Origin: Bacillota bacterium
GTDB taxonomy: Bacteria; Sysuimicrobiota; Sysuimicrobiia; Sysuimicrobiales; Segetimicrobiaceae
NCBI GenBank assembly: GCA_021324975.1
Contig: JAJPIA010000011.1
Location: forward strand, 15,984 to 79,983
Reading direction: 5' to 3'
DNA length: 64,000 nt
Below the pieces are notes generated by a model. It was not told the DNA's origin and made no database searches. It worked only from the letters and a program-made list of their open reading frames with translations. Shown here one piece after another: positions 38,956 through 53,480 of this stretch; the first letter of the stretch is position 1, and every line of letters starts with the position of its first letter. Position numbers and translations under genes: made by a program.

Positions 38956-39076
38956 CCAGTGGCCTCCGGCGAAACGCGATCTGCGACACACTTCCATGGG
39001 GATCGGGGGTCTCCTCCCATTGACTGTCCCCTCCGGGTGAGAGCCATTCAACGCAGAACATCTTGGACCCGATCCA

Positions 39077-41012
39077 GCTTCAAAGAGGCCGCCGTCTTTC
39101 AACGGCGGAAACCCTTCGCTTCGCGGGGCGATACGCTCAATGCGCTTGAGCTTCAATGAGGCCGCCGTCTTTCAACGGCGGAAACGTGTTCCTCCTCACT
39201 GCCCCTTTCTCTCCAAGAGGATGCTTCAATGAGGCCGCCGTCTTTCAACGGCGGAAACGTGGAAAGAAATTTTCTTGGAGTAGTAGTAGCAAAGCTTCAA
39301 TGAGGCCGCCGTCTTTCAACGGCGGAAACTGCTCGGTCTCCCGAACTACTTCGACGCGTTCGCGAATGCTTCAATGAGGCCGCCGTCTTTCAACGGCGGA
39401 AACCGGGGTTCGCCGAGTTCGACGTGTCCGGCTCGGCACCGCTTCAATGAGGCCGCCGTCTTTCAACGGCGGAAACGTTCGACGGCAATGGCATCACGGA
39501 CGAAGTGCAGATGCTTCAATGAGGCCGCCGTCTTTCAACGGCGGAAACGTCGCGCGCTGAGTACCTGAAAGGCGCGTCGTACCTGCTTCAATGAGGCCGC
39601 CGTCTTTCAACGGCGGAAACGACGAGACCATTTTGATAGTGGTCCTTTTGCCGAAGCAGCTTCAATGAGGCCGCCGTCTTTCAACGGCGGAAACGTTCCA
39701 TGCGGGCTTTACACCGGAGCGCTGAAGATAATGCTTCAATGAGGCCGCCGTCTTTCAACGGCGGAAACCAAGAACATCATTGCGGACAAGACGTATGGGT
39801 TGTACGGCTTCAATGAGGCCGCCGTCTTTCAACGGCGGAAACGGTGCAGGTCTCGTACTCGGTGCGCCCGCTCGACGAGCTTCAATGAGGCCGCCGTCTT
39901 TCAACGGCGGAAACAAGACCACCTGTTTTACTGCATGCCACATAACGTGCCCGCTTCAATGAGGCCGCCGTCTTTCAACGGCGGAAACTCCGGCCACATA
40001 ATTTGGCTCCGGGTTAGAGATGGGCTTCAATGAGGCCGCCGTCTTTCAACGGCGGAAACCAAATTACGCCGGTACATTTAGTACGCGATCATACGCTTCA
40101 ATGAGGCCGCCGTCTTTCAACGGCGGAAACCTTTGGTATCGCAAGGATAGCACATACCCAAGAAACCGCTTCAATGAGGCCGCCGTCTTTCAACGGCGGA
40201 AACCAGACCACCACGCTCGATGCGTTCTGCGCGGCATGGCTTCAATGAGGCCGCCGTCTTTCAACGGCGGAAACCGGCACCTCGCTCGCGTTCATGGTCG
40301 CCAGCAGTGGCGGCTTCAATGAGGCCGCCGTCTTTCAACGGCGGAAACTCTACTTCCTGAGCCGTGGCAGCGGCGGGACGAACAGCTTCAATGAGGCCGC
40401 CGTCTTTCAACGGCGGAAACCGGCAGGCCGTCCAGATCGGCTCCCGGCGGCGGATCTGGCTTCAATGAGGCCGCCGTCTTTCAACGGCGGAAACTCGCCC
40501 GCGGCCGGGGTGGCAAGCCGGGGTGGCAAGCGCGCTCTCGGGCAAGCTTCAATGAGGCCGCCGTCTTTCAACGGCGGAAACCTCAAAACCCTGCTCGCCA
40601 TGATCCTGTCCATCCTCAGGCTTCAATGAGGCCGCCGTCTTTCAACGGCGGAAACCCGGGCCCCAAACACATTACCCAGGCAGAGGAGGTGCTTCAATGA
40701 GGCCGCCGTCTTTCAACGGCGGAAACCTCGTGCGCTCGGCCTGGACGCCGATGTTATAGCTGCTTCAATGAGGCCGCCGTCTTTCAACGGCGGAAACGTA
40801 CAGGCGCACCGAGGCGTGGCTTCTGCGCGAGGGCTTCAATGAGGCCGCCGTCTTTCAACGGCGGAAACTCTTCAAGCCGGGTCATCTCATCCTCGACACC
40901 ACGACGCTTCAATGAGGCCGCCGTCTTTCAACGGCGGAAACTTGTCCGGGACGCGGTCAGTCTCGCCGGATGCCTGGCTTCAATGAGGCCGCCGTCTTTC
41001 AACGGCGGAAAC
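39077..41012 (-). CRISPR. CRISPR array: 27 repeats, 26 spacers; 36-bp repeat GTTTCCGCCGTTGAAAGACGGCGGCCTCATTGAAGC (transcribed orientation, minus strand)
   Basis: Perfect 36-bp direct repeats every 71-74 bp. The first (distal) repeat at 39077-39112 carries one substitution (CAAAGAGG). Spacers are 35-38 nt except one of 51 nt. The repeat contains a 7-bp stem (CCGCCGT/ACGGCGG) followed by a 12-nt tail ending ATTGAAGC. Confidence 0.95.
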
Positions 41013-41250
41013 AGCGCGTGGCGCTGGCCCTTACTACCGAAGGTTCCCACGCAAGTCTTGCGAGCACCCGCCTCTCTTCAGGTCCGCTTTCTCGCACGTA
41101 TCACATTTGATGCTGAGGCGAGCCGCAAGGTCTGACAATGGACAACCAGTTTCGGACAAATGCGAGCGGCGCTCCCAAAACGACAAATCACGCCGCCGCT
41201 CGCGCCGACCCGCACATCTGTTCTATTGTCAAGGTGCGAGGGCTACTAGC
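41013..41250 (-). promoter_or_regulatory. CRISPR leader (AT-richer 238-bp segment between cas2 and the first repeat)
   Basis: Position between the cas2 stop and the proximal perfect repeat; lower GC than flanks; the degenerate repeat lies at the opposite end. Confidence 0.55.
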
Positions 41251-41553
41251 CTACACAACTCTGTATCGCTTGGCCACGGGAACAACAGCGCTGCCCAACG
41301 CGTGTATCCTGCGCAGCGCGCGACCGTGTGCTATGCCGAGATCGATGATATGCACGCTGTCTTCCGGAAGCTTTACCACCTTGATCAGCGCCTCCTGCAT
41401 CAGTACCTGTTCGGCGGACGACAGGTTGCAGACAAAGACTGAGTATTGCAGGGGATCGCCGTAACCCAGCATGGTTTCGTGCGTTTTCCGCAATCTCTTC
41501 GGCTCACGAACGTCGTAGCAAACGACGAATCGACGGCGTTGAGTCTCGCTCAT
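41251..41553 (-). CDS. cas2: CRISPR-associated endoribonuclease Cas2
   Basis: 100 aa, FVVCYDV...LQYSVFVC Cas2 motifs; ATGA overlap with cas4-cas1. Confidence 0.9.
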   Translation of the reverse strand: MSETQRRRFVVCYDVREPKRLRKTHETMLGYGDPLQYSVFVCNLSSAEQVLMQEALIKVVKLPEDSVHIIDLGIAHGRALRRIHALGSAVVPVAKRYRVV

Positions 41554-43250
41554 CGCGTGACGAAGGGCTTGTAGTCTGTCAGTTCTCCGACGACCGTTCT
41601 TGCCATCAAGCGCGCCTGGACCTCGAGAATCCGGCGGTAGCTGATAGAATAGCCGAATAAGGGATGCGTGATGAGTGTCTCCATCCTTTCCTCATACGCC
41701 TCCACGACGCGTCGCCGGGCCGGGTCCTTGATCGCGCAGGCCGACCCGCGCTGGACGAAATCGTCCTTGTGAACCATCTGATTGTTGATCAACGTAAGGA
41801 CAGTCGAATCACCGACGATCGGTCGGAATTCCTCTGCAAGGTCCAGACCGAGCGATGGGCGTCCGTAGTGTACCTGGTGGAAGAAGCCGATGTATGGGTC
41901 AAGACCGACGGCGATCAGCGAAGCAACGCAGTCTTTGAGAAGTAGAGCGTAAAGAAACGAAAGCAGCGCGTTGACAGGATCCCGCGGGGGACGGCGATTA
42001 CGCTCCCGAAAATCAAAGGCGAGTTCCGGGCGCAGCATGCCCGCAAACTCGGAGAAGTAAACGCGTGCCGCGGTGCCTTCGACGCCGAGGAGCGTTTGAA
42101 TCGAGTCGACGCCGTGGGCGCCGCCGCTTAAGCGTCCCAACTCGATCACCGCCGCCCGCGGCGAACCACGGTGATTCCGCCGTAAGAGCGTTCGCTGGTT
42201 TCGGATCTTGCCCCATACGAACGCCCGGGCCATGGACAGCGATCGCCGCGGATCCACAGCGACGCGGTATTGGGAGACTCGAAGCAGAACATTTCGCTGT
42301 TCGGGCGCGGTGGTTATCGCGGCGAGCCAGCCGCCGTAGGTAAAGTGCAGGAGCGGCGCTCCTCGCGCCACCACTCCGCGAATTGCCTGGGCGCTCACTT
42401 GGACATTGCCGGCAACGGCGACGTGAGAGACGTCGATCAGTCGCGCATGGGCCTCCGAGCCGTCGGGAGTGCGGACGACGAGCCGCTCGCCTTGCTTGCC
42501 GACCGTCGCACCTTGAGTGAGGACATAAAGTGGTCCCGCGTCTTCCCGCGCCGGCATGAGCCGGCGAACCTCCTCGGCCCTCACCCCACTCAAGAGGTTC
42601 GTTTCGTCGGGAAGGCAAATGCCGACGAGCGAGCAGCGCGGACATTTCGGGCTGTCTACGAGCGGGGGAGGTGGAATCGGTCGGGCGGCGGCTTCTCGAA
42701 GCCTCCGCACGGCCTCAAGCGACTTGGTGACCAGCGTTTCATCGAACTGCACGGCGAAGCGCTGTTTGGTGGCCGCATAGTAGATGCAGCCGTCATCACA
42801 AGCGTAGCCGTTCTCCCTTAGAATAAGCGCCTGCACACACAGTTGCACAAGGTCCGGTTCCCACGGGCCCTCGCGTCCCGGCGCACCTTTCTTGTAGTCC
42901 ACGGGCCGCACCCGGCCGCCGTCTCCCTCCAGGAGATCGATGCGCGCGATCAATCCAAGATTGGGAGCCGACAGCAGTACGCCTCGGGCTGCAATCCGAT
43001 CCTCCGGCTCCAACTCCGCCGCTTCGGGAAGCGGCCCGCCCTGCCGATCCACCCGCCGGTGAACAGCGGCGCCTTCGAGCGTGTCAACGCTGTGCGTGAA
43101 CTCTCTTTGAACCCATTCGAGATAGAACAGACGAGGGCAATAGACGAACTCGTTCACCATGCGGGCGGGAACCAGATCCCGCGCCGGAGCCGGTTCAGGC
43201 GTCTCGTCCGCGCCTTGACCCGAGCGAACACTCATGGCCTCATGGCGCAC
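41550..43250 (-). CDS. cas4-cas1: Cas4-Cas1 fusion protein (RecB-like nuclease domain with Fe-S cysteines + Cas1 integrase)
   Basis: N-terminal Cas4 (VYCPRLFYLEW; C-x-x-C...C cluster KCPRCSLVGIC), C-terminal Cas1 (NALLSFLYALL, GLDPYIGFFH). The fusion is a hallmark of type I-G/I-U. Confidence 0.9.
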   Translation of the reverse strand: MRHEAMSVRSGQGADETPEPAPARDLVPARMVNEFVYCPRLFYLEWVQREFTHSVDTLEGAAVHRRVDRQGGPLPEAAELEPEDRIAARGVLLSAPNLGLIARIDLLEGDGGRVRPVDYKKGAPGREGPWEPDLVQLCVQALILRENGYACDDGCIYYAATKQRFAVQFDETLVTKSLEAVRRLREAAARPIPPPPLVDSPKCPRCSLVGICLPDETNLLSGVRAEEVRRLMPAREDAGPLYVLTQGATVGKQGERLVVRTPDGSEAHARLIDVSHVAVAGNVQVSAQAIRGVVARGAPLLHFTYGGWLAAITTAPEQRNVLLRVSQYRVAVDPRRSLSMARAFVWGKIRNQRTLLRRNHRGSPRAAVIELGRLSGGAHGVDSIQTLLGVEGTAARVYFSEFAGMLRPELAFDFRERNRRPPRDPVNALLSFLYALLLKDCVASLIAVGLDPYIGFFHQVHYGRPSLGLDLAEEFRPIVGDSTVLTLINNQMVHKDDFVQRGSACAIKDPARRRVVEAYEERMETLITHPLFGYSISYRRILEVQARLMARTVVGELTDYKPFVTR

Positions 43251-43295
43251 TGGGACTACGCCGATGCGGCGTATTCACGCTGACGGCCCTCCGGT

Positions 43296-43703
43296 TCATG
43301 GGCCCGTCTCTTCGGGCAGGCGCGCGAAAATCGCCTCACAGACCCGACGGGCAATCGCCAGTGCCTGGCAGGCTTCCTCTAGCGTCGGCGCGGCCGGCAT
43401 CCCAGGATAGCGAAATCGCCAGGCGTAGGGGGTCAGATCCGCCGCCGGCCCCACCAAGTCGGTCATCGACGGATCGTGCGCGACCACCGCACGTCCCAGT
43501 TCATCCAGATCGTGAGTCTTCCGAAACGGCTCCTCATGCGCGCTGAGAAAGGCCTTCATCGCCTTCTCGGCCGCCTGCTGGCAGTGGAAGACCGCACCGC
43601 GCACGAGGGGCGGCGTCGCCGCAAGATCATGTTCCGCTTCGCGGAGGTCCTCCGCGGCTCGCTGCAGCCATTCCCGCACCTCGGCGAACAGCTCAGGCTG
43701 CAT
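43296..43703 (-). CDS. HEPN domain protein (putative RNase toxin of a HEPN/MNT pair)
   Basis: Rx4H motif in RGAVFHCQQAAEKAMKAFL matching the HEPN (pfam05168) consensus; 135 aa; overlaps the upstream MNT stop by 11 nt. Confidence 0.7.
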   Translation of the reverse strand: MQPELFAEVREWLQRAAEDLREAEHDLAATPPLVRGAVFHCQQAAEKAMKAFLSAHEEPFRKTHDLDELGRAVVAHDPSMTDLVGPAADLTPYAWRFRYPGMPAAPTLEEACQALAIARRVCEAIFARLPEETGP

Positions 43704-44025
43704 AGAGCAACCTGCCCTCCCGAAGCACCGTTGCCGGAAGGGAGCATACTACACGCGACCGTGAGTCGAATTCGTCGCGCGTCCAGACGAGAACGTCTTT
43801 GGCAACCCCGACACCCCTGAGCGCCCGGTAAGCCTGCTGATCACGGCGGTGGCCGGGCAGGTCAGATTCACGAACAATGACAAGGAGATCGTAGTCGCTG
43901 TCGGGCCCGGCCTCCCCGCGAGCGCGCGACCCGAATAGGTAGATTTGCTCGGGATGCAGTCTCGCGACGAGCCGCCGCACGATCTCGGCGAGTTTCGCAT
44001 CCTGCTCGAGGATCGGATCGCTCAT
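43693..44025 (-). CDS. Minimal nucleotidyltransferase (MNT, MntA-like antitoxin)
   Basis: LFGSRARGEAGPDSDYDLLVIV GS-x9-DxD pol-beta NTase motif. 110 aa starting at MSDPILEQ, which is the C-terminal part of ORF 43693..44304. Confidence 0.75.
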   Translation of the reverse strand: MSDPILEQDAKLAEIVRRLVARLHPEQIYLFGSRARGEAGPDSDYDLLVIVRESDLPGHRRDQQAYRALRGVGVAKDVLVWTRDEFDSRSRVVCSLPATVLREGRLLYAA

Positions 44026-44470
44026 ACAGGTTCGAGTTTCGGGGCCCCATTCTCTAACAACTGGTCCGCTTCCGTAAGCGTCGCGTGCCCGCGATCCAGG
44101 CGGTGTCGGGCGAGCGCCACAAGATCCGGATTCATAGAAGTACAGCTTCGTGGACGAGTGTCTGCACGAACCTGGTACATGTCCAGACAGGATCGTGAAG
44201 CACCGACTCTGCAAACACCCGCGGGGAGATGTAGACTTGATGGGTCGTTGGCACCGAGGGCGATATCGAGCACGCAATCCTCGACTCCGGTATCGGCTTC
44301 GCACACGAGTACCAAGACGCGATATCTGACTCGCCTGTATCGCGGCCGCTGGCCCTGGACCCGAAGAGTTTGAGCGTCACCACACTGTCACCCACCGCCG
44401 CCCGCACCTTCGGCACGAACTCATCGACGGCCGCCCGATCGTGAAGCGCAAGCACAGCGCGTGGCGTCAT
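44022..44470 (-). pseudogene. Second MNT-type nucleotidyltransferase, apparently frameshifted/degenerate
   Basis: N-terminal LFGSRASGRDTGESDI in ORF 44132..44470; the downstream hydrophobic continuation (VLVLVCEADTG...) is in the frame of ORF 44022..44315. The second Asp of DxD is lost in either frame. Confidence 0.4.
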
Positions 44471-44551
44471 GCCGTTCCGTCGCCGGTCACAGAGCGCTTA
44501 TCCAGCCGTGGTGACAATCGAGCACAAGCCGCAAAGATTTCTTCACGGCGG

Positions 44552-45700
44552 TCAGACAGCGCCCGCCGGGCTAAAGTTGATCTTAAAGTTGGCACCTTCG
44601 CCGATCTTGATGCGGCGCGCCCGGAAAAGCGCTTCTAAGCCGCGCGAGCGCACCACCGCACGGTCGGGCGCCGGGGAGAACAGTTCCGGCATTTGCAGCA
44701 ACGAACGGATCCCGTCCAGCGTCAACGGCTTGTCCCATATCGGCCATGTGAATACAGACTCCTCGCCGACTTCTCCCCAAGCAGTAGTGAGTAACTTCCC
44801 GCGGGCCGGGGCGGACGAGAATAGCACGAGTGCGCGATAGGCAAGGAGATTTGCCATCCATTGAGTATGCGCACCTATCGGCCCGGGATCACGATCCATC
44901 AGCGCGTATTGGTGTGCCTCGACCGGATCCCACCGAAGTGACAACCCTTCATCTTCATATCCCCATGGTTCAAAGAGCGTCCGCCTCAGGCGATCCGCGG
45001 CGACTTGCTGCATCAACTGTCGCACGGTATCCAAGAAGTACTGATGGCCTGATCCTCTGATGAAGCAGAACGGCGTCGGTACGACTCTGCCGTTCTTTTC
45101 GACGCTCGCGTCGCTCGCAAACGCGGCCAACAGGTCAACCGTCTCGCGGCGGTACACGCTAGAGCTGGTCAGCAGGCTGCGAGCGTGATCACGATATTCA
45201 TCTGGCGTGCAGTCGACGGATTTGCCCAGGGCTAGTTCCGGGCGTGCGACGGCATCCGCCAGTGCCGCCCGCCACGCATCGCGCAGGCGCTCTACCTCCA
45301 GCGACAAGACCGGCAGTTCTCGGTCCATCGCTGCCCGTCGCTCCATTCCTGAAAAGCGTTTGCGAATTTCCTTCCTCTTCTTAGCCAGTTGCTGCTTGGC
45401 CGCGTTGAATGCCTTTTCGGCACTCTTACGCCTCGCTTCCGACTCCGACGATATGGGCCGTCCACGGAGTTCTTCTGACAACACGTTGATCAGCGCATCC
45501 GAATTAGCGAACGGGACGTCCGTGAGCACGGCGATCCAGTCGAACTGTCGCCGCCATGCCAGACGAATCTGCACGTGGCCGCCGCGGTGGAGCGTCACCG
45601 CGGTGCCGAGCGCAGCGAGGAAACCCAACGGATTGCTCCCGGCAAAGCCCGGCAGTTCCACGATGCGCGAGTCTTGTCTCGTTGACGTCTCGCGCATCAT
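44552..45700 (-). CDS. Cas8u/Csx17-like large-subunit candidate of type I-G (short, 382 aa)
   Basis: Position after cas3 with ATGA coupling. N-terminal PLGFLAALG motif reminiscent of Cas8c/Cas8u2 N-termini. No other domain recognisable, so the assignment is by context. Confidence 0.5.
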   Translation of the reverse strand: MMRETSTRQDSRIVELPGFAGSNPLGFLAALGTAVTLHRGGHVQIRLAWRRQFDWIAVLTDVPFANSDALINVLSEELRGRPISSESEARRKSAEKAFNAAKQQLAKKRKEIRKRFSGMERRAAMDRELPVLSLEVERLRDAWRAALADAVARPELALGKSVDCTPDEYRDHARSLLTSSSVYRRETVDLLAAFASDASVEKNGRVVPTPFCFIRGSGHQYFLDTVRQLMQQVAADRLRRTLFEPWGYEDEGLSLRWDPVEAHQYALMDRDPGPIGAHTQWMANLLAYRALVLFSSAPARGKLLTTAWGEVGEESVFTWPIWDKPLTLDGIRSLLQMPELFSPAPDRAVVRSRGLEALFRARRIKIGEGANFKINFSPAGAV

Positions 45701-48700
45701 GGGGCGGCCTCAGTCACCACGTTCGCGGATTCTGTCAGCCGACTGGCATACCAGTCGCTGAGACGGAGCACCGCAGCCAAGTAGGCTTCACCCCACCACC
45801 CGTGGCGACGCACACTTGCCCAAAAGCGTTCGACCACGCCTGAGTCGATCCTATGGGCGTGCGAGAGTCCCGCCCGGGCAGCCGCGGTCAATTGCACCGA
45901 TACGTCGCCCAGGCGCCCTGCGATACCTGGAGGCGATGCGTCTTCCACGATCGGTGCGAAGGGCCGACCGTAGCCGTGGTGGCTTGCTATGAGATGAAGG
46001 ATCAAGTCCCGCACTTCTCGATCCTCGAACGCGAGCTGTTGTTCAGCCAGCTGCATGGACAACATCTCGTGCCTGAATCCATCAGGCAGCCCGGCCGCGC
46101 AACGAACTGTTCGGCGCTCTCCGGGAAGCACCGGCACATTTGCCGACTTGGCTATCGGTTTCTCAGACAGGACGGCCAGCACGTTCCCCCGCCGCAACAA
46201 CATCTGAAAGCGTTCGTCCAGCTTTCCGGCATCATGCCAGTGGCCGGCTAGTTCCACCGCGTCGCCTATGTCGGATGGGAGACATAGTTCGGCGATGCGT
46301 TCTACTGTACGTTGGACGAGCCTCGTATGCTCGTCGAGCGACACGTCCCGGGCGCCGGATGAAGTCAGATCGTCGTCGTCCGCGAACAAGTCGATTTCGT
46401 CGTCTTCGGGCACGGTCCGCGCGCGTCGGCCCATGAGCACCACGCCGCCACCCGGGTGCCGTTCGATACGCCCCGTGCGCGCCTCGCGAAGGAGAGTGAG
46501 CCACCACTTCGGTGGCGCGGGAGGGTCGTCCGGCGCCGTCGGCCGGTAGCCCAACGCGGCATCGACGGCATCGTTCAACGCCCCTCGATCGAGTACGGGA
46601 TCCTCGGCGGTTTCCATGACGACCGCCAAAGGAGGACACGTCAGCCACGGACCCAGCACGCGGCGATTCAACCGAACGACTGCGCGGCCCCTCTCGAACA
46701 CGGCAGGTTCCCACAGATCCACCAGAGACTCGCCCACAGCCATATGAGGCTCAGACTGGCCAAGGCCGTCAATGCCGTAGTCCGCGGGGATAACAACAAC
46801 GTCACCCGGCCCCACCAGCGTCGGGTCTCGAACGACTGTAGACGTGTCGCGCCCACGCCAGATCACAAAACGGCGATTCTGGGTCGCCGCAACGCGCTCT
46901 GCGATTGCCCCTACGCCCTCCACATCACCCGAGTCGTCGGGTCCGCCGCCGGGAATCGCGAGCCATGCACGAAGACGGTACAGAGGCACCGACAGCGTCT
47001 CGGCGGCCGATGGCGGACAAAGCGCCACGCTCTCGAGCCAGCTAGCGTCGGAATCGGCGACCGAAAGATCGCACCGCCACACGACCTGCGCTTCCGCCAC
47101 CCACGACCCGATGCCGTGGAGGAACAGATGCACATCGGGTTCCGGATACGGTGAGGCTGATGTCTGGCACAACAAATCGAGATGCGCCGGCAGCAGTATC
47201 GGAGCATCCGGGGCCGGGGCGCAATACGGCAATACGTCGTCCACATCACGGAGCGTGGAATGCAGCGCCCGCACTCCGAAATCGATCGAGACTTCCTTGC
47301 CGGCACGGGCTGCTTTCTCGCTCAACAGCCGCCACGTTGCTGCTACAGCGTCCCCATAAATTGGATCGGGATCCTCACCCCTGGCATCGAGATCGCGAAT
47401 CAGTATGGTCGCGGGCGTGACCGATATCCCTCCCATGCGGTTGAGCCGGCCGAAGCGCTGGCGAAGCGCGTCCAGACTTGCCGCCTCGGTGACAAGGGCG
47501 TCAAAACTGAAGTCCGCACCGACTTCGAGGCATTGCGTGGCAACGACAACGACAGGACGATGCGGCTCCTCAGGATCTGCCGCCCTCAAGCACGCCTGCC
47601 AGCGGTGCACCAACGCATCGCGTTCCAGGGGCCGCAAACGACCGGTGAGCAGCACGACATCGAAGAGTTCATTGGCGGCCTCTCGCAACGCCCGTGCCGT
47701 TTCTTCGGCGGTACGGACTCGATTCACCATCACGGCGACACGGCGGGCACCGCCGACTACGTACGATTGGGCCTCGGATGCGGCTCGCTTGGCCAGAGCA
47801 TCGGCCCCCTGATCGGCTGCGGTGCGTACTTCGACCAACACAGCGGGCTTGGACGCCGCCAACCGGCTGCGGAGCACCGGATGGTCCAGTGCCTTCGTCT
47901 CGGCACGTCCGGGGAACACGTCACGGCGGTCGACGTCATCACCGGGGGGCGTAGCGGACATGACTGTAAAGGCGAACGGTGAAGGCAACGGATGCGTCGC
48001 CCAGGCCGCACCGCGATAGAACTCGATGCTGCGCATCGTCTGCAAGAATGGGACCGAACAATGCGCCTCATCCAGGATGATCAGACTGTCGTTTGCCGCC
48101 AACCCTGCGTAGATCGGCGCCGCGAGCCGACCGGATCCGTATGCACGAAATAGGATGCGAGACCCTACCTGGTCGACCGTTGAGGTAATCACCGCCGGCT
48201 GGGACGGAACACGGGCCCACCCGTCGTCGCGCAATATTCCACCTCGCAAGCGCCCAACCGCCAACGGACGATCGGTTCCCGCAACGCGCCTGAGGGCGTC
48301 CGCTACTCTGCGCAGCGGTCCCGTAGCGGCGGATCGCAGCCTGCTTGCTATGAGAACGGCACGCTGGTGGGCTTCATCGACGACGATCCGGCGATCGACA
48401 ACAAACCAAATCCGACGCGGCGCGCTCCGCTCGCCGGTGGTTCGCTCAGCCTGTGCCGCAAGGGCATACAGTGCGATGTCGACGCACGCCGTCTTACCGG
48501 CCGCTGTTGGAAGCTCGATGACTTTGGGCCACGTGGCGGCGGCCACGCGGTCTGCGAGCATGGACTGCCAGGGAAACGGCTCGCGGCCCCATAATGCATG
48601 GAAGAACTCGTCGAATGAGCCGGCCGTCACGAACGGGTCTCCTGCCGGCGACTCAACGGACGACAGAAGCCGTATCCGCAAAATCGGCCGGCGCCGATAC

Positions 48701-48714
48701 TGATCGGCCCACAC
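45697..48714 (-). CDS. cas3: CRISPR-associated helicase/nuclease Cas3 with C-terminal HD domain
   Basis: Walker A LPTAAGKT, DEAH box IILDEAH, helicase C motifs. C-terminal HD nuclease (LDEHTRLV, GHWHDAGKLD, IASHHG); the helicase-then-HD order is typical of I-G. The N-terminal 29 codons overlap csb2 and the true start may be internal. Confidence 0.9.
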   Translation of the reverse strand: MWADQYRRRPILRIRLLSSVESPAGDPFVTAGSFDEFFHALWGREPFPWQSMLADRVAAATWPKVIELPTAAGKTACVDIALYALAAQAERTTGERSAPRRIWFVVDRRIVVDEAHQRAVLIASRLRSAATGPLRRVADALRRVAGTDRPLAVGRLRGGILRDDGWARVPSQPAVITSTVDQVGSRILFRAYGSGRLAAPIYAGLAANDSLIILDEAHCSVPFLQTMRSIEFYRGAAWATHPLPSPFAFTVMSATPPGDDVDRRDVFPGRAETKALDHPVLRSRLAASKPAVLVEVRTAADQGADALAKRAASEAQSYVVGGARRVAVMVNRVRTAEETARALREAANELFDVVLLTGRLRPLERDALVHRWQACLRAADPEEPHRPVVVVATQCLEVGADFSFDALVTEAASLDALRQRFGRLNRMGGISVTPATILIRDLDARGEDPDPIYGDAVAATWRLLSEKAARAGKEVSIDFGVRALHSTLRDVDDVLPYCAPAPDAPILLPAHLDLLCQTSASPYPEPDVHLFLHGIGSWVAEAQVVWRCDLSVADSDASWLESVALCPPSAAETLSVPLYRLRAWLAIPGGGPDDSGDVEGVGAIAERVAATQNRRFVIWRGRDTSTVVRDPTLVGPGDVVVIPADYGIDGLGQSEPHMAVGESLVDLWEPAVFERGRAVVRLNRRVLGPWLTCPPLAVVMETAEDPVLDRGALNDAVDAALGYRPTAPDDPPAPPKWWLTLLREARTGRIERHPGGGVVLMGRRARTVPEDDEIDLFADDDDLTSSGARDVSLDEHTRLVQRTVERIAELCLPSDIGDAVELAGHWHDAGKLDERFQMLLRRGNVLAVLSEKPIAKSANVPVLPGERRTVRCAAGLPDGFRHEMLSMQLAEQQLAFEDREVRDLILHLIASHHGYGRPFAPIVEDASPPGIAGRLGDVSVQLTAAARAGLSHAHRIDSGVVERFWASVRRHGWWGEAYLAAVLRLSDWYASRLTESANVVTEAAP

Positions 48715-50090
48715 ACGGGCCGGCCGAATTCGAGCATCGCGTGCGTGTGCCGACGTTCGCCGCCGTCCTTCCGGCGCAGGCGCGGGAACGCAAACGACGG
48801 CGGCGCGCCGGCGTGACGTGACACGGAAGTCACGGCAACGTTGCGAGGTTCAGGCAGGCCGATCCGGACGCACGCCGTCGCTATCATATCCGCAACTTCC
48901 ATCTGGTACCGGGCCCGGTCGGACGACTTAGGATGCCGGTCGAACACAACGGGTGTAACCGTTGCCCAGTGGGTCGCGCCGTCCGGATACGCTGTCCAAG
49001 CCTCCGCCCGCAGGTTCCACGCAAGGGAGCCCGTCTGGGGCGGCACAACAGACCAAACGCCGAGCGGGCCCAAAAGAAGCTGGCGCACACGCGCGATCGC
49101 CTGAAGAGCGACGCGGCGCTCGTCGAGAGAAACGGAGGACGGCAGCGTCAACGCCATGCCGAGAATTCTGCCGTCCGCATGTGGATGCCCCACGAACGCC
49201 AGCGGCAAAAGGGCCAAGTGCGGATCCGGAAGAGAACCCCCGTCGGCCCGGTGACCGGATAAGAGGCTTCGAATGCGCTCCGGAAGACCATTCGTTTGCG
49301 AAATGACCGCCTCACGCATGCGCTCGGCGACAGAGAAGACGGCGCACAGATCCAGAAAGGGATACGGGCCTTCCTCGCGCTCGAATGCCACGATGAGTGG
49401 ATAAAGCTCGAACGCGCTGCCCTGCGCCGAGACCGTTGCGGCCCCCCTCGTAGGACCAGCATAGGGCGCGTACGTCGGAATCCGCGGGCGCGTTCGGCGA
49501 GCATATCGTCGTTCCAACTCTTCCAGCAGCCCAGCGCCGGCGACGCGCATCTGCAACGTCCCGTTTCGCCCGTCCGGCACCCAGTCCGGCGTGCGCGGCG
49601 CGTCTGACGCCACCCACATCTGCACCATCGACGTCGAGTGCCCGACCCGCGTCACTTTCGCGCAGAGGCCTTCGAGGGCCCGGCGCACCGCCACAGTGGG
49701 CTCCGCCGAAGGCCATGAGTAGTAAACAGTGTCGTCCTCCAGCCAAGCGCGGGCGAATGACCTCGGTTGTCGGTCGCGCGCGAGCTGAGGCGCGGACTGA
49801 ATGGTCGCAGTTGGAGGTTTCCCGGCATCGCCTGGCTTGTCGTTCACCGGCACGTATTGGGTAACCATCGCCCGCTCGCTATGGCCGGCGGCGTTGATCT
49901 GCGGCGCTTCGAGGCGCTCCAACCACAAGAGCGCGTCGCGCTCAGCCTGGTCCGCGCCTGTTTCGAAGTGGGCGGCTGCAAGCGCCATATAGACCCTGCC
50001 CGGATGCGGCGGCCACTCAACACGCCGTGCGTGTCCGGCAGCATCAGCCGCGACGAAACCGTTCAGATACCGAATCCCAAAGACGAGCAT
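48627..50090 (-). CDS. Csb2-type Cas5-Cas6 fusion protein (type I-G crRNA-processing subunit)
   Basis: N-terminal MLVFGIRYLNGFVAA (RYLxG motif of the Csb2/GSU0054 family) and C-terminal glycine-rich loop GAGRFCGYGF typical of Cas6-like RAMPs. Confidence 0.75.
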   Translation of the reverse strand: MLVFGIRYLNGFVAADAAGHARRVEWPPHPGRVYMALAAAHFETGADQAERDALLWLERLEAPQINAAGHSERAMVTQYVPVNDKPGDAGKPPTATIQSAPQLARDRQPRSFARAWLEDDTVYYSWPSAEPTVAVRRALEGLCAKVTRVGHSTSMVQMWVASDAPRTPDWVPDGRNGTLQMRVAGAGLLEELERRYARRTRPRIPTYAPYAGPTRGAATVSAQGSAFELYPLIVAFEREEGPYPFLDLCAVFSVAERMREAVISQTNGLPERIRSLLSGHRADGGSLPDPHLALLPLAFVGHPHADGRILGMALTLPSSVSLDERRVALQAIARVRQLLLGPLGVWSVVPPQTGSLAWNLRAEAWTAYPDGATHWATVTPVVFDRHPKSSDRARYQMEVADMIATACVRIGLPEPRNVAVTSVSRHAGAPPSFAFPRLRRKDGGERRHTHAMLEFGRPVCGPISIGAGRFCGYGFCRPLSRRQETRS

Positions 50091-50094
50091 CTTC

Positions 50095-51341
50095 CTATTC
50101 TGTGCCCGTCGACTCCGTAACCGCCTCCAGCTGGCTTAAACGGACGAGTTTCACCAACTGATCGGAAGGTGTCAGCTCCACGGGGTTCTCCTCCCAGGTC
50201 AGACCCTTCGCCTTTGTCTGGTTCACTGCCGCGGCTAACAGCTTGATCGCCTCCGCCGAGGAAAGGTCGAACTCTCTCGGTGCTTCACCCGGACGATCCA
50301 GCAGCTGCCATTGCATGGCGCCCTCAGGCCAGAGCAGACACCGCGAGCGCAAATCGGCGCCGGACTCGAACGCGAGCGTGGCGGCGCAAAGGCCCAGCGC
50401 GGCGAGAGCCGTGCGCGCCGCGGCATCAAGTTCCGCGTCAGGCTTGCCGTCTACCGGGAAGCGTAGACGCCTGAGTGCAATAAGTGAGAGTGTCGTTGTT
50501 TGCTCAGCGTATTCAATCGTCACGCCATTGTAGTAATTTTTTTCGGTCTTTTTGTCGCGCTGCTCCGGATACGGCACGCTCGAGTGGTTAAGTTTGGACG
50601 GCGCGACCCCGCCCTTGGCATGTGGATCCGCGACCTCCCAGGAATTGTTGTCCTTCTTCACGACTTTGACCGCCGCACGAATTTCAAGAGGATCGCGCCG
50701 CACGCCTCGCCGGAGGTCGCCTACCTCGGCCCCGACGCCCACAATTTCTGATACCACCACCCGTTCAAACTTCGGTCCAAGTCCGCCCTTCGGTCCTGTC
50801 GAGTCCCACATCCCAAGGAGCAATGCCGTGGGGCAAAGTATGTAGACCGGTGTGGCGTTGGAGGGACCGGCGCTGCTCAGCATGCGCCCTTTCTCCGAAT
50901 CGCGAAATGGCTTGCCTTCGAACTCGCTGTCACGAAGGATGGCATCGGCCAAGCGATGAGGCACTTGAAGGCTCGTGATCCGTCCGACCGCCTCGACCAG
51001 CCGACCCTCCTGCTCATCGCTCTTTGTATCTCCTTTGGGATCGTGGCGGCTGAAGTCCACAACCACCGTCGGCAGCGCGAGGACTTTCGCATCGAGGGCG
51101 TCTTGGAGAGCAAGCTCCATGCGGTTCGCCTGACTCTGAACGCTGTCCAGCAGTACGCATGTAACCGGCAGGTCCCGGCCGGGGATACGCCGTGTTTCAA
51201 TCGCGTATACGGCGCCGGCAAACGTGGGGGGGAAAACCTTGTCGCCCGGCCCCCTGCCGGTTGCAGCCGTCGGCGGCACCGAAAGGCGGCTGCCGATCCC
51301 TCGACCGCTGCCCGAAGGGCCTCAAATGTCAATGCGCTCAT
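50095..51341 (-). CDS. cas7: Csb1-type Cas7 backbone protein; the 5' end is apparently frameshifted (assembled ORF 50095..51279)
   Basis: Low-GC RAMP. The N-terminal region GDKVFPPTFAGA is reminiscent of the Csb1 RFQPTGFP motif but is recalled rather than verified. ATG at 51341 has a perfect GGGGAGG SD and reads MSALTFEALRAAVEG...LQPAGG in the -1 frame, joining the main frame at a C5/G5 homopolymer (51250-51254). Confidence 0.7.
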
Positions 51342-51857
51342 AGTGTGCCTCCCCTGATCTGCGCCCCGTGATGAGAGTTCGCGGCGCTCAATCCACCGGC
51401 TCCCTCGCCGAGATCGGTCGCCCGTGTCCGCGCCGAGCTCGTGGAACATCTCTTGGTCTGACGCCATCGAACCCGCCAGAAGTAATGCGTGAGCAAATTT
51501 CAATATGCCCACCGCCCATGGCCACTAGACTGGAACTAACTCGACTCCCTTTTTCGGCTTCCTAACTTCGAGCTAGGGCAATTGCGACTGCGACTCCGTG
51601 GGCAGAAGCCTGACCGGGGCAGCAACGAACATAGGTTCGATTCGACATGGCCATTATCCTCTACCCCAAGACAGGCAATTGCCTGCGCCGACAGCCTACG
51701 ACTCCCTCTTATTGGGCATGTGCAGGTCGAGAAGAAGGCGACACCGGCAAGCCACCGATTTCTGGCGGATCAGTCGTCTTTGCATCGGGTCGCGGTGGCT
51801 GGATATGAGGCCCGATCGACGGCTGCCGCGCCGGACTTAACGACCGCGGGGTGCCGC

Positions 51858-53399
51858 ATGGATTTGCTTTTCTTGTTTGGTGGCATTGTCCTCGGCACTC
51901 TGGCGGCGAGCGTGGCATGGCAGCGCCGCCTGAGCGAGCACCAACGCGCGGCCGAAGCCCGCAGCCTGAAGCTCGAGGAACAAGTTCACAGGTTCGAGGA
52001 CCAAGCGCGAGAGCAAGCAGCGCGACTGACAGAATCACGGCACCGGGAGGACGCCGCTCAACGAGCCTTGCAAGAGGAAGCTCGCCTCCGGGCCGCTTCC
52101 GAAGAAACCGCAAAGCGGGTCCCAGGGCTCGAAGGTACGGTGGTGCAACAGAACACAGAGTTGACGAATCTTCGGGCGGAACTTGCATCGTTACGGACGC
52201 AAATCGTCGACGAGCGCAGGAACCTCGAAGAGAAAATGGGGATCCTCAACGACGCGAGGGCCCACCTGCAGGACGCATTCAAAGGTCTGTCCGCAGAGGC
52301 GTTGCGAAGCAACAATGAGGCGTTCTTGCAACTTGCCCGGGAGAACCTGGAGCGGTTTCAGCAGGGCGCAGTGGCCGACCTCGACGCTCGGCGGCAGGCC
52401 GTGGATGACGTCGTGCGCCCTCTCCGCGAACACCTCGGGCACGTCCAAGTTAAATTGGGCGAGTTGGAGCGCCAACGGCTTCAAGCGTATAGCGCGCTCG
52501 ACGAGCAGCTGAAGGCTCTGGTTCAGTTGCACCTACCCCAACTGCACAGCGAAACCCTAAATCTCGTCAAAGCATTGCGTCAACCTAGCGGGCGCGGCAG
52601 GTGGGGGGAACTGCAGCTGCGTCGCGTCGTGGAAATGGCCGGGATGCAGCCACACTGCGACTTTACGGAGCAGACGACTGCTACAACCGATAACGGACGC
52701 TTGCGGCCCGATCTGATTGTATGTCTTCCCGGTGAGCGTCGTCTCGTTGTCGACGCCAAAGCCCCTGTCGACGCGTACCTGAACGCCATCGAAGCCGGGG
52801 ATGATGAGTCGAGGCGCCGGTTCCTTGTCCAGCATGCCACCCAAGTGCGGAACCACATCGCCATCCTGGCCAAGAAGGAATACTTCGAACAGTTTGAGAT
52901 CACGCCAGACTTCGTCATCATGTTCATCCCAGGAGAAGCGTTCTTCAGCGCAGCGTTAGAGTTCGACCCCGGGCTCATTGAACACGGGGTGGAGCAGCGC
53001 GTCATCCCGGCGAGTCCCACGATTCTCATCGCACTCTTGAAGGCCGTTGCCTACGGTTGGCGCCAGGAAGCCGTAACTCGAAATGCCCAAGAGGTGGCGG
53101 AACTCGGAGCAGACCTCTACCGGCGAATCAGCGATCTCGCAGACCGGTGGGGCGAGATTGGAAAGCGCCTTGGCCAGATGGTTGAGGCCTATAACAAGGC
53201 GGTGGCCACCTTGGAGACCCGCGTCCTCGTGACGGCACGGCGGTTCGCTGGATTGGGCGTCGCGCGACATGATGACAGCATTGCACCCGTAGAGCCTGTC
53301 GAGAGGGCTCCACGGGTTCTTGCCGCACCCGAAATGATACGCCATGATGCGCTCGCACTGGAGAGCCCTCGTTCGACCACAGAGGACGAACGGAACTGA
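51858..53399 (+). CDS. rmuC: DNA recombination protein RmuC
   Basis: N-terminal TM helix, long coiled-coil, C-terminal RmuC nuclease-like domain (DFVIMFIPGEAFF). ATG at 51858 within ORF 51582..53399. Confidence 0.85.
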   Translation: MDLLFLFGGIVLGTLAASVAWQRRLSEHQRAAEARSLKLEEQVHRFEDQAREQAARLTESRHREDAAQRALQEEARLRAASEETAKRVPGLEGTVVQQNTELTNLRAELASLRTQIVDERRNLEEKMGILNDARAHLQDAFKGLSAEALRSNNEAFLQLARENLERFQQGAVADLDARRQAVDDVVRPLREHLGHVQVKLGELERQRLQAYSALDEQLKALVQLHLPQLHSETLNLVKALRQPSGRGRWGELQLRRVVEMAGMQPHCDFTEQTTATTDNGRLRPDLIVCLPGERRLVVDAKAPVDAYLNAIEAGDDESRRRFLVQHATQVRNHIAILAKKEYFEQFEITPDFVIMFIPGEAFFSAALEFDPGLIEHGVEQRVIPASPTILIALLKAVAYGWRQEAVTRNAQEVAELGADLYRRISDLADRWGEIGKRLGQMVEAYNKAVATLETRVLVTARRFAGLGVARHDDSIAPVEPVERAPRVLAAPEMIRHDALALESPRSTTEDERN

Positions 53400-53480
53400 C
53401 CTTGCTCATTCGGACTGCGCGGAGATGACACAGCCACCCAGGCCCCACTCACGCATCCTGCGCTGTGCACCACACAGGAC

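Follow-up and report, generated by a model that had tools for sequence, protein, structure and literature searches.

The question raised by the CRISPR-Cas locus at positions 39077-51341 of the 64,000-nucleotide stretch analysed here (the window, whose positions are used throughout) is whether it represents a new form of a type I-G system or one more member of a known group. The window belongs to a 193-kb contig from metagenome JGI 3300005533. An earlier note, made from the letters alone, had read the locus as a complete I-G system with a non-canonical gene order and a large subunit of only 382 aa, and had suggested a rearranged or minimised variant. The evidence given below indicates that the region is very probably an I-G system of a sub-variant whose large subunit is a short, Cas3-adjacent Cas8g of the NF049934 family. 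The locus is an ordinary instance of this catalogued, widespread and biochemically unstudied sub-variant, and it is possibly inactivated.

All cas genes were found on the minus strand, in the order cas7 (csb1), csb2, cas3g, the gene for the 382-aa protein, a gene pair for a minimal nucleotidyltransferase (MNT) and a HEPN-domain protein, cas4-cas1, cas2, a leader and the CRISPR array. In searches with hidden Markov models (HMMs), the cas7g/csb1 gene (50095-51341), which is interrupted by a 1-nt frameshift, matched PF09617 (161.5 bits, 2.4e-47), TIGR02570 (54.7 bits versus a cut-off of 38) and PADLOC Cas7g (8.3e-45, in the 50095-51279 frame). The csb2 gene (48627-50090, 487 aa), a Cas5-Cas6 fusion, scored 286 bits on TIGR02165 (5.1e-85) and 1.2e-119 on PADLOC Cas56g, and residues 1-478 of its product aligned to positions 1-491 of the 492 in the TIGR02165 profile. 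For cas3g (45697-48630, 977 aa), TIGR02621 gave 707.5 bits compared to a cut-off of 400. Pfam and PADLOC agreed in placing the helicase of Cas3g at the N-terminus, Helicase_C/Cas3-like_C_2 at residues 324-427 and the HD nuclease at the C-terminus, approximately residues 793-992, and the translation shows a Walker A motif (AAGKT), a DEAH box and HD motifs. The cas4-cas1 fusion (41550-43250, with a likely start at 43235 in the gene call, giving 561 aa) reached 746.6 bits on NF049935 cas4g_cas1g (cut-off 560), and HMMs located Cas4 and Cas1 at residues 31-213 and 241-521, respectively. The cas2 gene (41251-41553, 100 aa) matched PF09827 (3e-15), TIGR01573 (E 1.9e-8) and PADLOC Cas2g (1.2e-24). 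The genes of the operon lie close together, csb2/cas3, cas3/382-aa gene and cas4-cas1/cas2 overlapping by 4 nt each, and no separate cas5, cas6 or cas11 gene was found in the operon, since the list of open reading frames (ORFs) holds no further gene inside.

The I-G signature models thus all exceeded their curated NCBIfam cut-offs, and Pfam and PADLOC concurred. These scores, obtained for every cas gene, show that the I-G assignment and the gene order of the earlier note are correct: TIGR02621, TIGR02165, TIGR02570 and NF049935 were all above cut-off and the profiles did not assign the repeat-associated mysterious proteins elsewhere; the gene list, including the HEPN/MNT insert, was HMM-backed throughout; and the Cas4-Cas1 fusion, the Cas5/Cas6 fusion in Csb2 and the C-terminal HD domain of Cas3 were each confirmed. 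Judged by its profile matches, the locus is a genuine bacterial CRISPR-Cas system of subtype I-G (formerly I-U).

The 382-aa protein (44552-45700, minus strand) was found to match NCBIfam NF049934, 'type I-G CRISPR-associated protein, Cas3-extension family', with 238.8 bits versus a cut-off of 65, and PADLOC PDLC01514, 'Cas8g, CAS-I-U effector_LS', at 6.5e-74. It contained no Pfam domain and gave no match to TIGR04113 (Csx17) or TIGR04106 (Cas8g2) even at E <= 10. As positive controls, a true Csx17 (L018, 13692-16046) and a true Cas8g2 (L063, 16429-17493) scored 671.5 bits on TIGR04113 and 129.5 bits on TIGR04106, respectively. The former label 'Cas8u/Csx17-like' therefore holds as regards the Cas8g profile and a Cas8-like fold, but not as regards the Csx17 HMM, which the protein does not match at all. 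A word-indexed search found at least 690 relatives, nearly all of 375-385 aa, and a full profile scan gave 1,996 matches among 1.84 billion cluster representatives (50% clustering). The NF049934 family falls into two classes, one of 358-402 aa with a helical hairpin and one of 300-338 aa without it, and in Cas3g fusions of 1,311-1,466 aa it forms the C-terminus. In the window protein the 72-residue hairpin occupies residues approximately 82-152 and was predicted very confidently; among the 102 family members in the alignment 42 have it, and the curated profiles of NCBIfam and PADLOC (287-299 positions) do not. Because the family ranges from 300 to 400 aa, the window protein is full length and belongs to the longer class. 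The 'minimised' large subunit of the earlier note was thus the normal size for a curated family with approximately 2,000 representatives, and the statement that it has half the size of Csx17 mixed two families, Csx17 (Cas8g1) having been confused with Cas8u2/Cas8g2, because the Geobacter Cas8g2 is only approximately 275 aa.

Sequence searches of PDB chains found nothing significant for the 382-aa protein, its family profile or Cas7g, and no structure or biochemistry of the NF049934 family turned up in PDB sequence or literature searches. A first structure model, from 34 sequences, was mediocre (predicted local distance difference test, pLDDT, 70.8), and the AlphaFold model from a 102-sequence alignment reached a pLDDT of 94.7 and a predicted template modelling score of 0.92. 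This model gave a strong fold match to the N-terminal domain of Csx17 and to Cas8a, which speaks against a protein unrelated to any Cas large subunit, the case that the earlier note had named as refuting its reading. It has the mixed alpha/beta fold of the Cas8 N-terminus and stops at that domain, with no Cas11-like C-terminal domain. In profile-profile comparison with the Csx17 alignment, a match was found over the first 65 columns of both (E 8.3e-5, probability 61%), in register from the N-termini. With the Cas8g2 alignment, hhalign gave a weak match (E 0.023, probability 2%) that was nevertheless colinear over 247 columns, with the shared motifs NP(L/G)xF(L/F)A, SG(H/Q)Q, (RW/FGF)DP and (TWPIW/YxTW). 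No significant hhalign match was obtained between the family profile and single Cas8g2 or Csx17 sequences. We conclude that the 382-aa protein is a predicted divergent Cas8g consisting of the N-terminal alpha/beta domain (plus hairpin) only, without the Cas11-like C-terminal bundle known from Cas8g1 (PMC9638904).

To place the gene order, 80 genomic loci encoding relatives of the 382-aa protein were compared, from Acidobacteriota, Nitrospirota, Planctomycetota, Verrucomicrobiota, Chloroflexota, Gammaproteobacteria, archaea of the Methanomassiliicoccaceae and others. The order cas7-csb2-cas3-short cas8g was present in 55 loci and probably in 4 more in which a contig end intervenes, and the Geobacter order cas3-cas8-cas7-csb2 was present in 3; 8 loci had another arrangement and 10 were uninformative. 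The order of the window is thus that of 55-59 of approximately 70 informative loci, and what had been called non-canonical is the norm for the family: the earlier note was right that it differs from the Geobacter reference, but not that it is rearranged. In all 80 loci the short cas8g lies immediately 3' of cas3, and in approximately 15 the two form a single ORF. Some genomes were also found to carry tandem I-G effector modules with large subunits of different classes (L018, 6965-20761; L012; L063, 10001-20689). In L018 a cas3::short-cas8g fusion lies beside cas3-csx17-cas7-csb2, and in L063 a short-cas8g module lies beside cas3-cas8g2-cas7-csb2.

The array (39077-41012, minus strand) consists of 27 repeats of 36 nt, GCTTCAATGAGGCCGCCGTCTTTCAACGGCGGAAAC, compared to 0 copies expected by chance, and 26 spacers, and a leader of 238 nt (41013-41250, minus strand), defined by position and sequence, extends from the cas2 stop codon to the first repeat; both had been read correctly before. 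Twenty-six of the 27 repeats are identical, and the sole mismatched copy, at 39077, is the furthest from the cas genes and marks the leader-distal end of the array. The spacers are 35-38 nt long except for one of 51 nt (40495-40545), within which 13 nt are perfectly duplicated in tandem (GCCGGGGTGGCAA, 2.2 copies on the plus strand, 40504-40531). The repeat RNA of the minus strand, GUUUCCGCCGUUGAAAGACGGCGGCCUCAUUGAAGC, folds into an 8-bp stem followed by a 12-nt 3' tail, CCUCAUUGAAGC (-14.1 kcal/mol), and Rfam CRISPR-DR16 gave below-threshold matches on the minus strand only. The fold and the strand of these matches indicate that array and cas genes share one direction of transcription, the array being read from the leader beside cas2. 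A hairpin with a 12-nt tail is consistent with the published I-G repeat pattern (PMC7284854; PMC9638904).

By homology to the I-G systems of Geobacter (PMC6547450) and Thioalkalivibrio (PMC9638904), the following mechanism may be proposed. Cas4-Cas1 and Cas2 would insert spacers of 35-38 bp at the repeat nearest the leader, on the 41012 side, and transcription of the array would follow the minus strand. Csb2 would then cut the repeat 3' of the 8-bp hairpin through its Cas6-like C-terminal half, leaving the 8-nt 5' handle AUUGAAGC, and Cas7g subunits would polymerise along the CRISPR RNA. The 382-aa protein, the gene of which is predicted to be translationally coupled to cas3, would supply the Cas8 N-terminal domain and hold Cas3g on the complex, and Cas3g would then nick and unwind the target DNA. 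That the short Cas8g is consistently coupled or fused to Cas3g agrees with published evidence for a Cas3 held stably on I-G Cascade through Cas8g (PMC9638904), and also with the requirement of Cas3 for Cascade function in Bifidobacterium animalis subsp. lactis (PMC9335239).

Between the 382-aa gene and cas4-cas1, an intact gene pair encodes a HEPN-domain protein (43296-43703, minus strand, 135 aa; PF05168, 2.8e-22) and an MNT (43693-44025, minus strand, 110 aa; PF01909, 1.5e-11), the two genes overlapping by 11 nt. The curated MntA equivalog NF047752 gave 34.9 bits, under its cut-off of 60, and the pair is therefore filed only as a generic MNT-HEPN pair, a putative toxin-antitoxin cassette of the type VII MntA/HepT-like kind in which HEPN is the putative toxin and MNT the putative antitoxin. 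Upstream of it a second MNT-like ORF in a degraded state (44022-44470, minus strand; also delimited as 44132-44470), which is missing from the earlier note, was recognised by three-frame translation, a weak similarity to the intact MNT in tblastn (E 0.02) and PADLOC PDC-S09 (1e-3). It shows a GSRASG...ESD motif, a frame break and then a HEPN-like stub of approximately 37 aa, which suggests a decayed earlier toxin-antitoxin copy. In the relatives, the same junction of the interference and adaptation genes, from short cas8g to cas4-cas1, was found to carry CcdAB, VapBC/PIN (twice), HEPN and ParE-like genes (L009, 11155-11778; L015, 1514-2138; L020, 8028-8722; L037, 8770-9156; L080, 11314-11682), with MNT-HEPN pairs in L039 and L021. 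Since such pairs recur there, the junction looks like a landing site, or hotspot, for toxin-antitoxin cassettes that is not specific to the window locus.

The cas7 gene was found to be split between two frames. Codons 1-31 (MSALTFEALRAAVEGSAAAFRCRRRLQPAGG), which open with the ATG at 51341 behind a GGGGAGG Shine-Dalgarno sequence, occupy one frame. The other codons, approximately 380 in number (PGDKVFPPTFAG..., or PGDKVFPPTFAGAVYA...), follow in a second frame, so that translation from the genuine start yields only 31 Cas7 residues as the gene is sequenced. The switch occurs at codons approximately 31-32 inside the run GGGGGCCGGG (51245-51254, minus strand), a G5-C2-G3 run. Approximately 60 cas7 homologues from related loci read continuously across this site (...AAAFRCRRRLQPAGGxGDKVFPPTF...), which indicates that one base is missing in the window gene. 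The same frameshift was present in three assemblies of the contig (JGI, ENA/MEGAHIT and Logan). As no homologue has the frameshift, the G5 run is unlikely to be a site of programmed frameshifting or transcriptional slippage. The earlier note overlooked the frameshift, and with cas7 broken its description of the locus as complete is doubtful. Unless a sequencing or consensus error explains the frameshift, the locus has probably lost interference.

Several observations weigh against reading the region as an I-G system with a short Cas8g. The links of the 382-aa protein to Csx17 and Cas8g2 are weak at the sequence level, and no NF049934 member was found to have been shown biochemically as part of a Cascade. 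A scan of the leader for sigma-70 consensus promoters found none, and the leader promoter is inferred. For subtype I-G, interference at a protospacer-adjacent motif (PAM) of TTN or TAN would be expected. Four scans of IMG/VR viral contigs, made with four leader-proximal or AT-richer spacers in which each sixth letter was N, revealed no protospacer, so that activity of the locus and its PAM are putative. Chain 8b2x_M, the reference, is likewise a predicted structure, derived with AlphaFold and placed in a map of approximately 8 Å (PMC9638904). Moreover, in six related loci csb1/csb2 are lacking and type III effector genes precede the cas3g-extension pair (L022, 40-11152; L026, 62-10573; L030, 99-13881; L041, 2-13356; L019, 18-11128; L021, 591-11149). 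L022, L026, L030 and L041 carry III-Dv-like multi-Cas7 fusions and Csx10, with a CARF protein also in L022 and L030, and in these four the flanks viewed reach 10 kb, so that a Cas10 gene further out would lie outside them. L019 and L021 carry a III-C-like set of Cas10c, Cmr4 and Cmr3. A stand-alone Cas6-like half of Csb2 was seen in L030 and, in L021, nearby, beside a second I-G module. The six loci may be juxtaposed systems or genuine type III/I-G hybrids.

Because of these type III-linked loci, the 382-aa protein may be a Cas3 adaptor and not a classical PAM-reading large subunit. In that case it would be an accessory protein tethering or regulating Cas3g, in a sub-variant without a true Cas8, as in I-F2. 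The constant position of its gene immediately 3' of cas3g, the fusions, the NCBI name 'Cas3-extension', which implies a Cas3g domain, and the absence of a Cas11-like domain all agree with an adaptor, and Cas8-independent recruitment of Cas3 is known in I-F2 (PMC12956352). Against it stand the strong structural match with Cas8a and with the N-terminal domain of Csx17, the N-terminal motif in register with Csx17 and Cas8g2, and the PADLOC and Makarova-derived profiles, which label the protein as the I-U large subunit. Nor is fusion to Cas3 an argument against a Cas8 identity, given the Cas3-Cas8e (Cse1) fusions reported to occur in type I-E. We consider the adaptor reading rather unlikely, and the two roles are compatible with each other. 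A bolder proposal is that NF049934 proteins form a mechanistically distinct I-G effector, with only a Cas8 N-terminal domain, no Cas11-like part and permanent tethering to Cas3 by coupling or fusion, in which, for the class of the window protein, the 72-aa hairpin might replace the missing belly-spanning domain. As the pair follows III-C or III-Dv-like genes in the six loci, it might also be a portable DNA-degradation module serving type III-like backbones. This proposal is speculative and rather improbable. The suggestion that the locus is a new kind of I-G variant, rearranged or minimised, whose Csx17 is truncated could draw on an order unlike the Geobacter cas3-cas8u2-cas7-cas5/6 (PMC6547450) and on a protein of approximately half the Csx17 length (a 720-aa chain in 8b2x). 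It is contradicted by a family of some 2,000 representatives with a full length of 300-400 aa, by the NCBIfam and PADLOC models that already exist for it, and by the order shared among most informative loci. A Bifidobacterium I-G locus in which cas3 stands between cas5/6 and cas1/4 and no cas8u2 was detected has been published (PMC7284854), as have three size classes of Cas8g (PMC9638904), and a novel variant is hardly credible.

A further alternative concerns the state of the locus, which could be a recently inactivated, decaying system: the cas7 frameshift would be real, and the system a pseudogenised remnant and not a working immune system. In favour of this are the frameshift after codon 31, behind a good Shine-Dalgarno sequence and ATG, its absence from the approximately 60 homologues and its presence in all three assemblies. 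The degraded MNT copy adjoining the intact toxin-antitoxin pair and the absence of spacer targets in the four IMG/VR scans point the same way. In contrast, the remaining cas genes are all intact and full length compared to their profiles, and 26 of 27 repeats are identical. The G5-C2-G3 run makes a consensus error or population heterogeneity plausible, and the three assemblies, although identical here, may not have been built from independent reads. Decay is quite possible, though we would stop short of calling it probable.

The region 39000-53400, which holds the cas locus and a divergent rmuC gene (51582-53399, plus strand), has a GC content of 57-66% compared to 68-71% in the flanks, suggesting that the cas locus and rmuC form a horizontally acquired island. 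RmuC was considered as a conserved partner beside cas7 and was rejected, the gene being found only in the window and in L026 among the related loci. The L026 rmuC, 49% identical, adjoins the cas3g-extension pair.

The window itself matters little, as one more metagenomic example of a catalogued sub-variant. What the analysis adds is a tie, at the level of fold, between the 'Cas3-extension' family and the N-terminal domain of Cas8g1/Csx17, and the finding that this family is large, with approximately 2,000 clusters in many phyla, and often fused to Cas3. Since I-G effectors include Cas3 as an integral subunit, a compact, Cas3-tethered version could interest builders of small Cascade-Cas3 editors.

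Among known systems, the large subunit of subtype I-G is described in three variants of very different size, of which Cas8g1 is the largest (PMC9638904). Compared to Cas8g1/Csx17 of the Thioalkalivibrio sulfidiphilus I-G Cascade (PDB 8b2x chain M, TIGR04113, PMC9638904), a chain of 720 aa, the window protein is approximately half as long, matches TIGR04113 nowhere and has no Cas11-like C-terminal helical domain, and its gene closes the effector operon, after cas3, and does not stand between cas3 and cas7. Cas8g2/Cas8u2/GSU0052/Csb3 (TIGR04106) of the Geobacter sulfurreducens-type locus is also a short large subunit, of approximately 275 aa, encoded directly after cas3g. The Geobacter order cas3-cas8g2-cas7-csb2 (PMC6547450), however, is shared by only 3 of the 80 loci with relatives of the window protein. 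The Bifidobacterium I-G systems (PMC7284854, PMC9335239, bioRxiv 10.1101/2022.08.19.504415) resemble the window in their 36-nt repeats, in which a hairpin of 8-9 bp is followed by a 12-nt tail. The locus of B. moukalabense EB43, reported to have cas3 between cas5/6 and cas1/4 and 'no cas8u2' (PMC7284854), shows the arrangement expected if a short, unrecognised Cas8g follows cas3, and a place of the Bifidobacterium 'Csb3' in NF049934 may be taken as a lead only. With the NF049934/PDLC01514 family, the window protein shares its place just 3' of cas3g, which its gene overlaps by 4 nt, in the same order as most members, and to the family profiles it adds the 72-aa hairpin at approximately 82-152. 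Westra and colleagues, cited in PMC9335239, reportedly described natural Cas3-Cse1 (Cas8e) fusions in type I-E in 2012. Those fusions offer a precedent for a large subunit joined to Cas3, although in another subtype and with an unrelated Cas8 family, whereas in the window cas3g and the short cas8g are separate genes joined by their 4-nt overlap.

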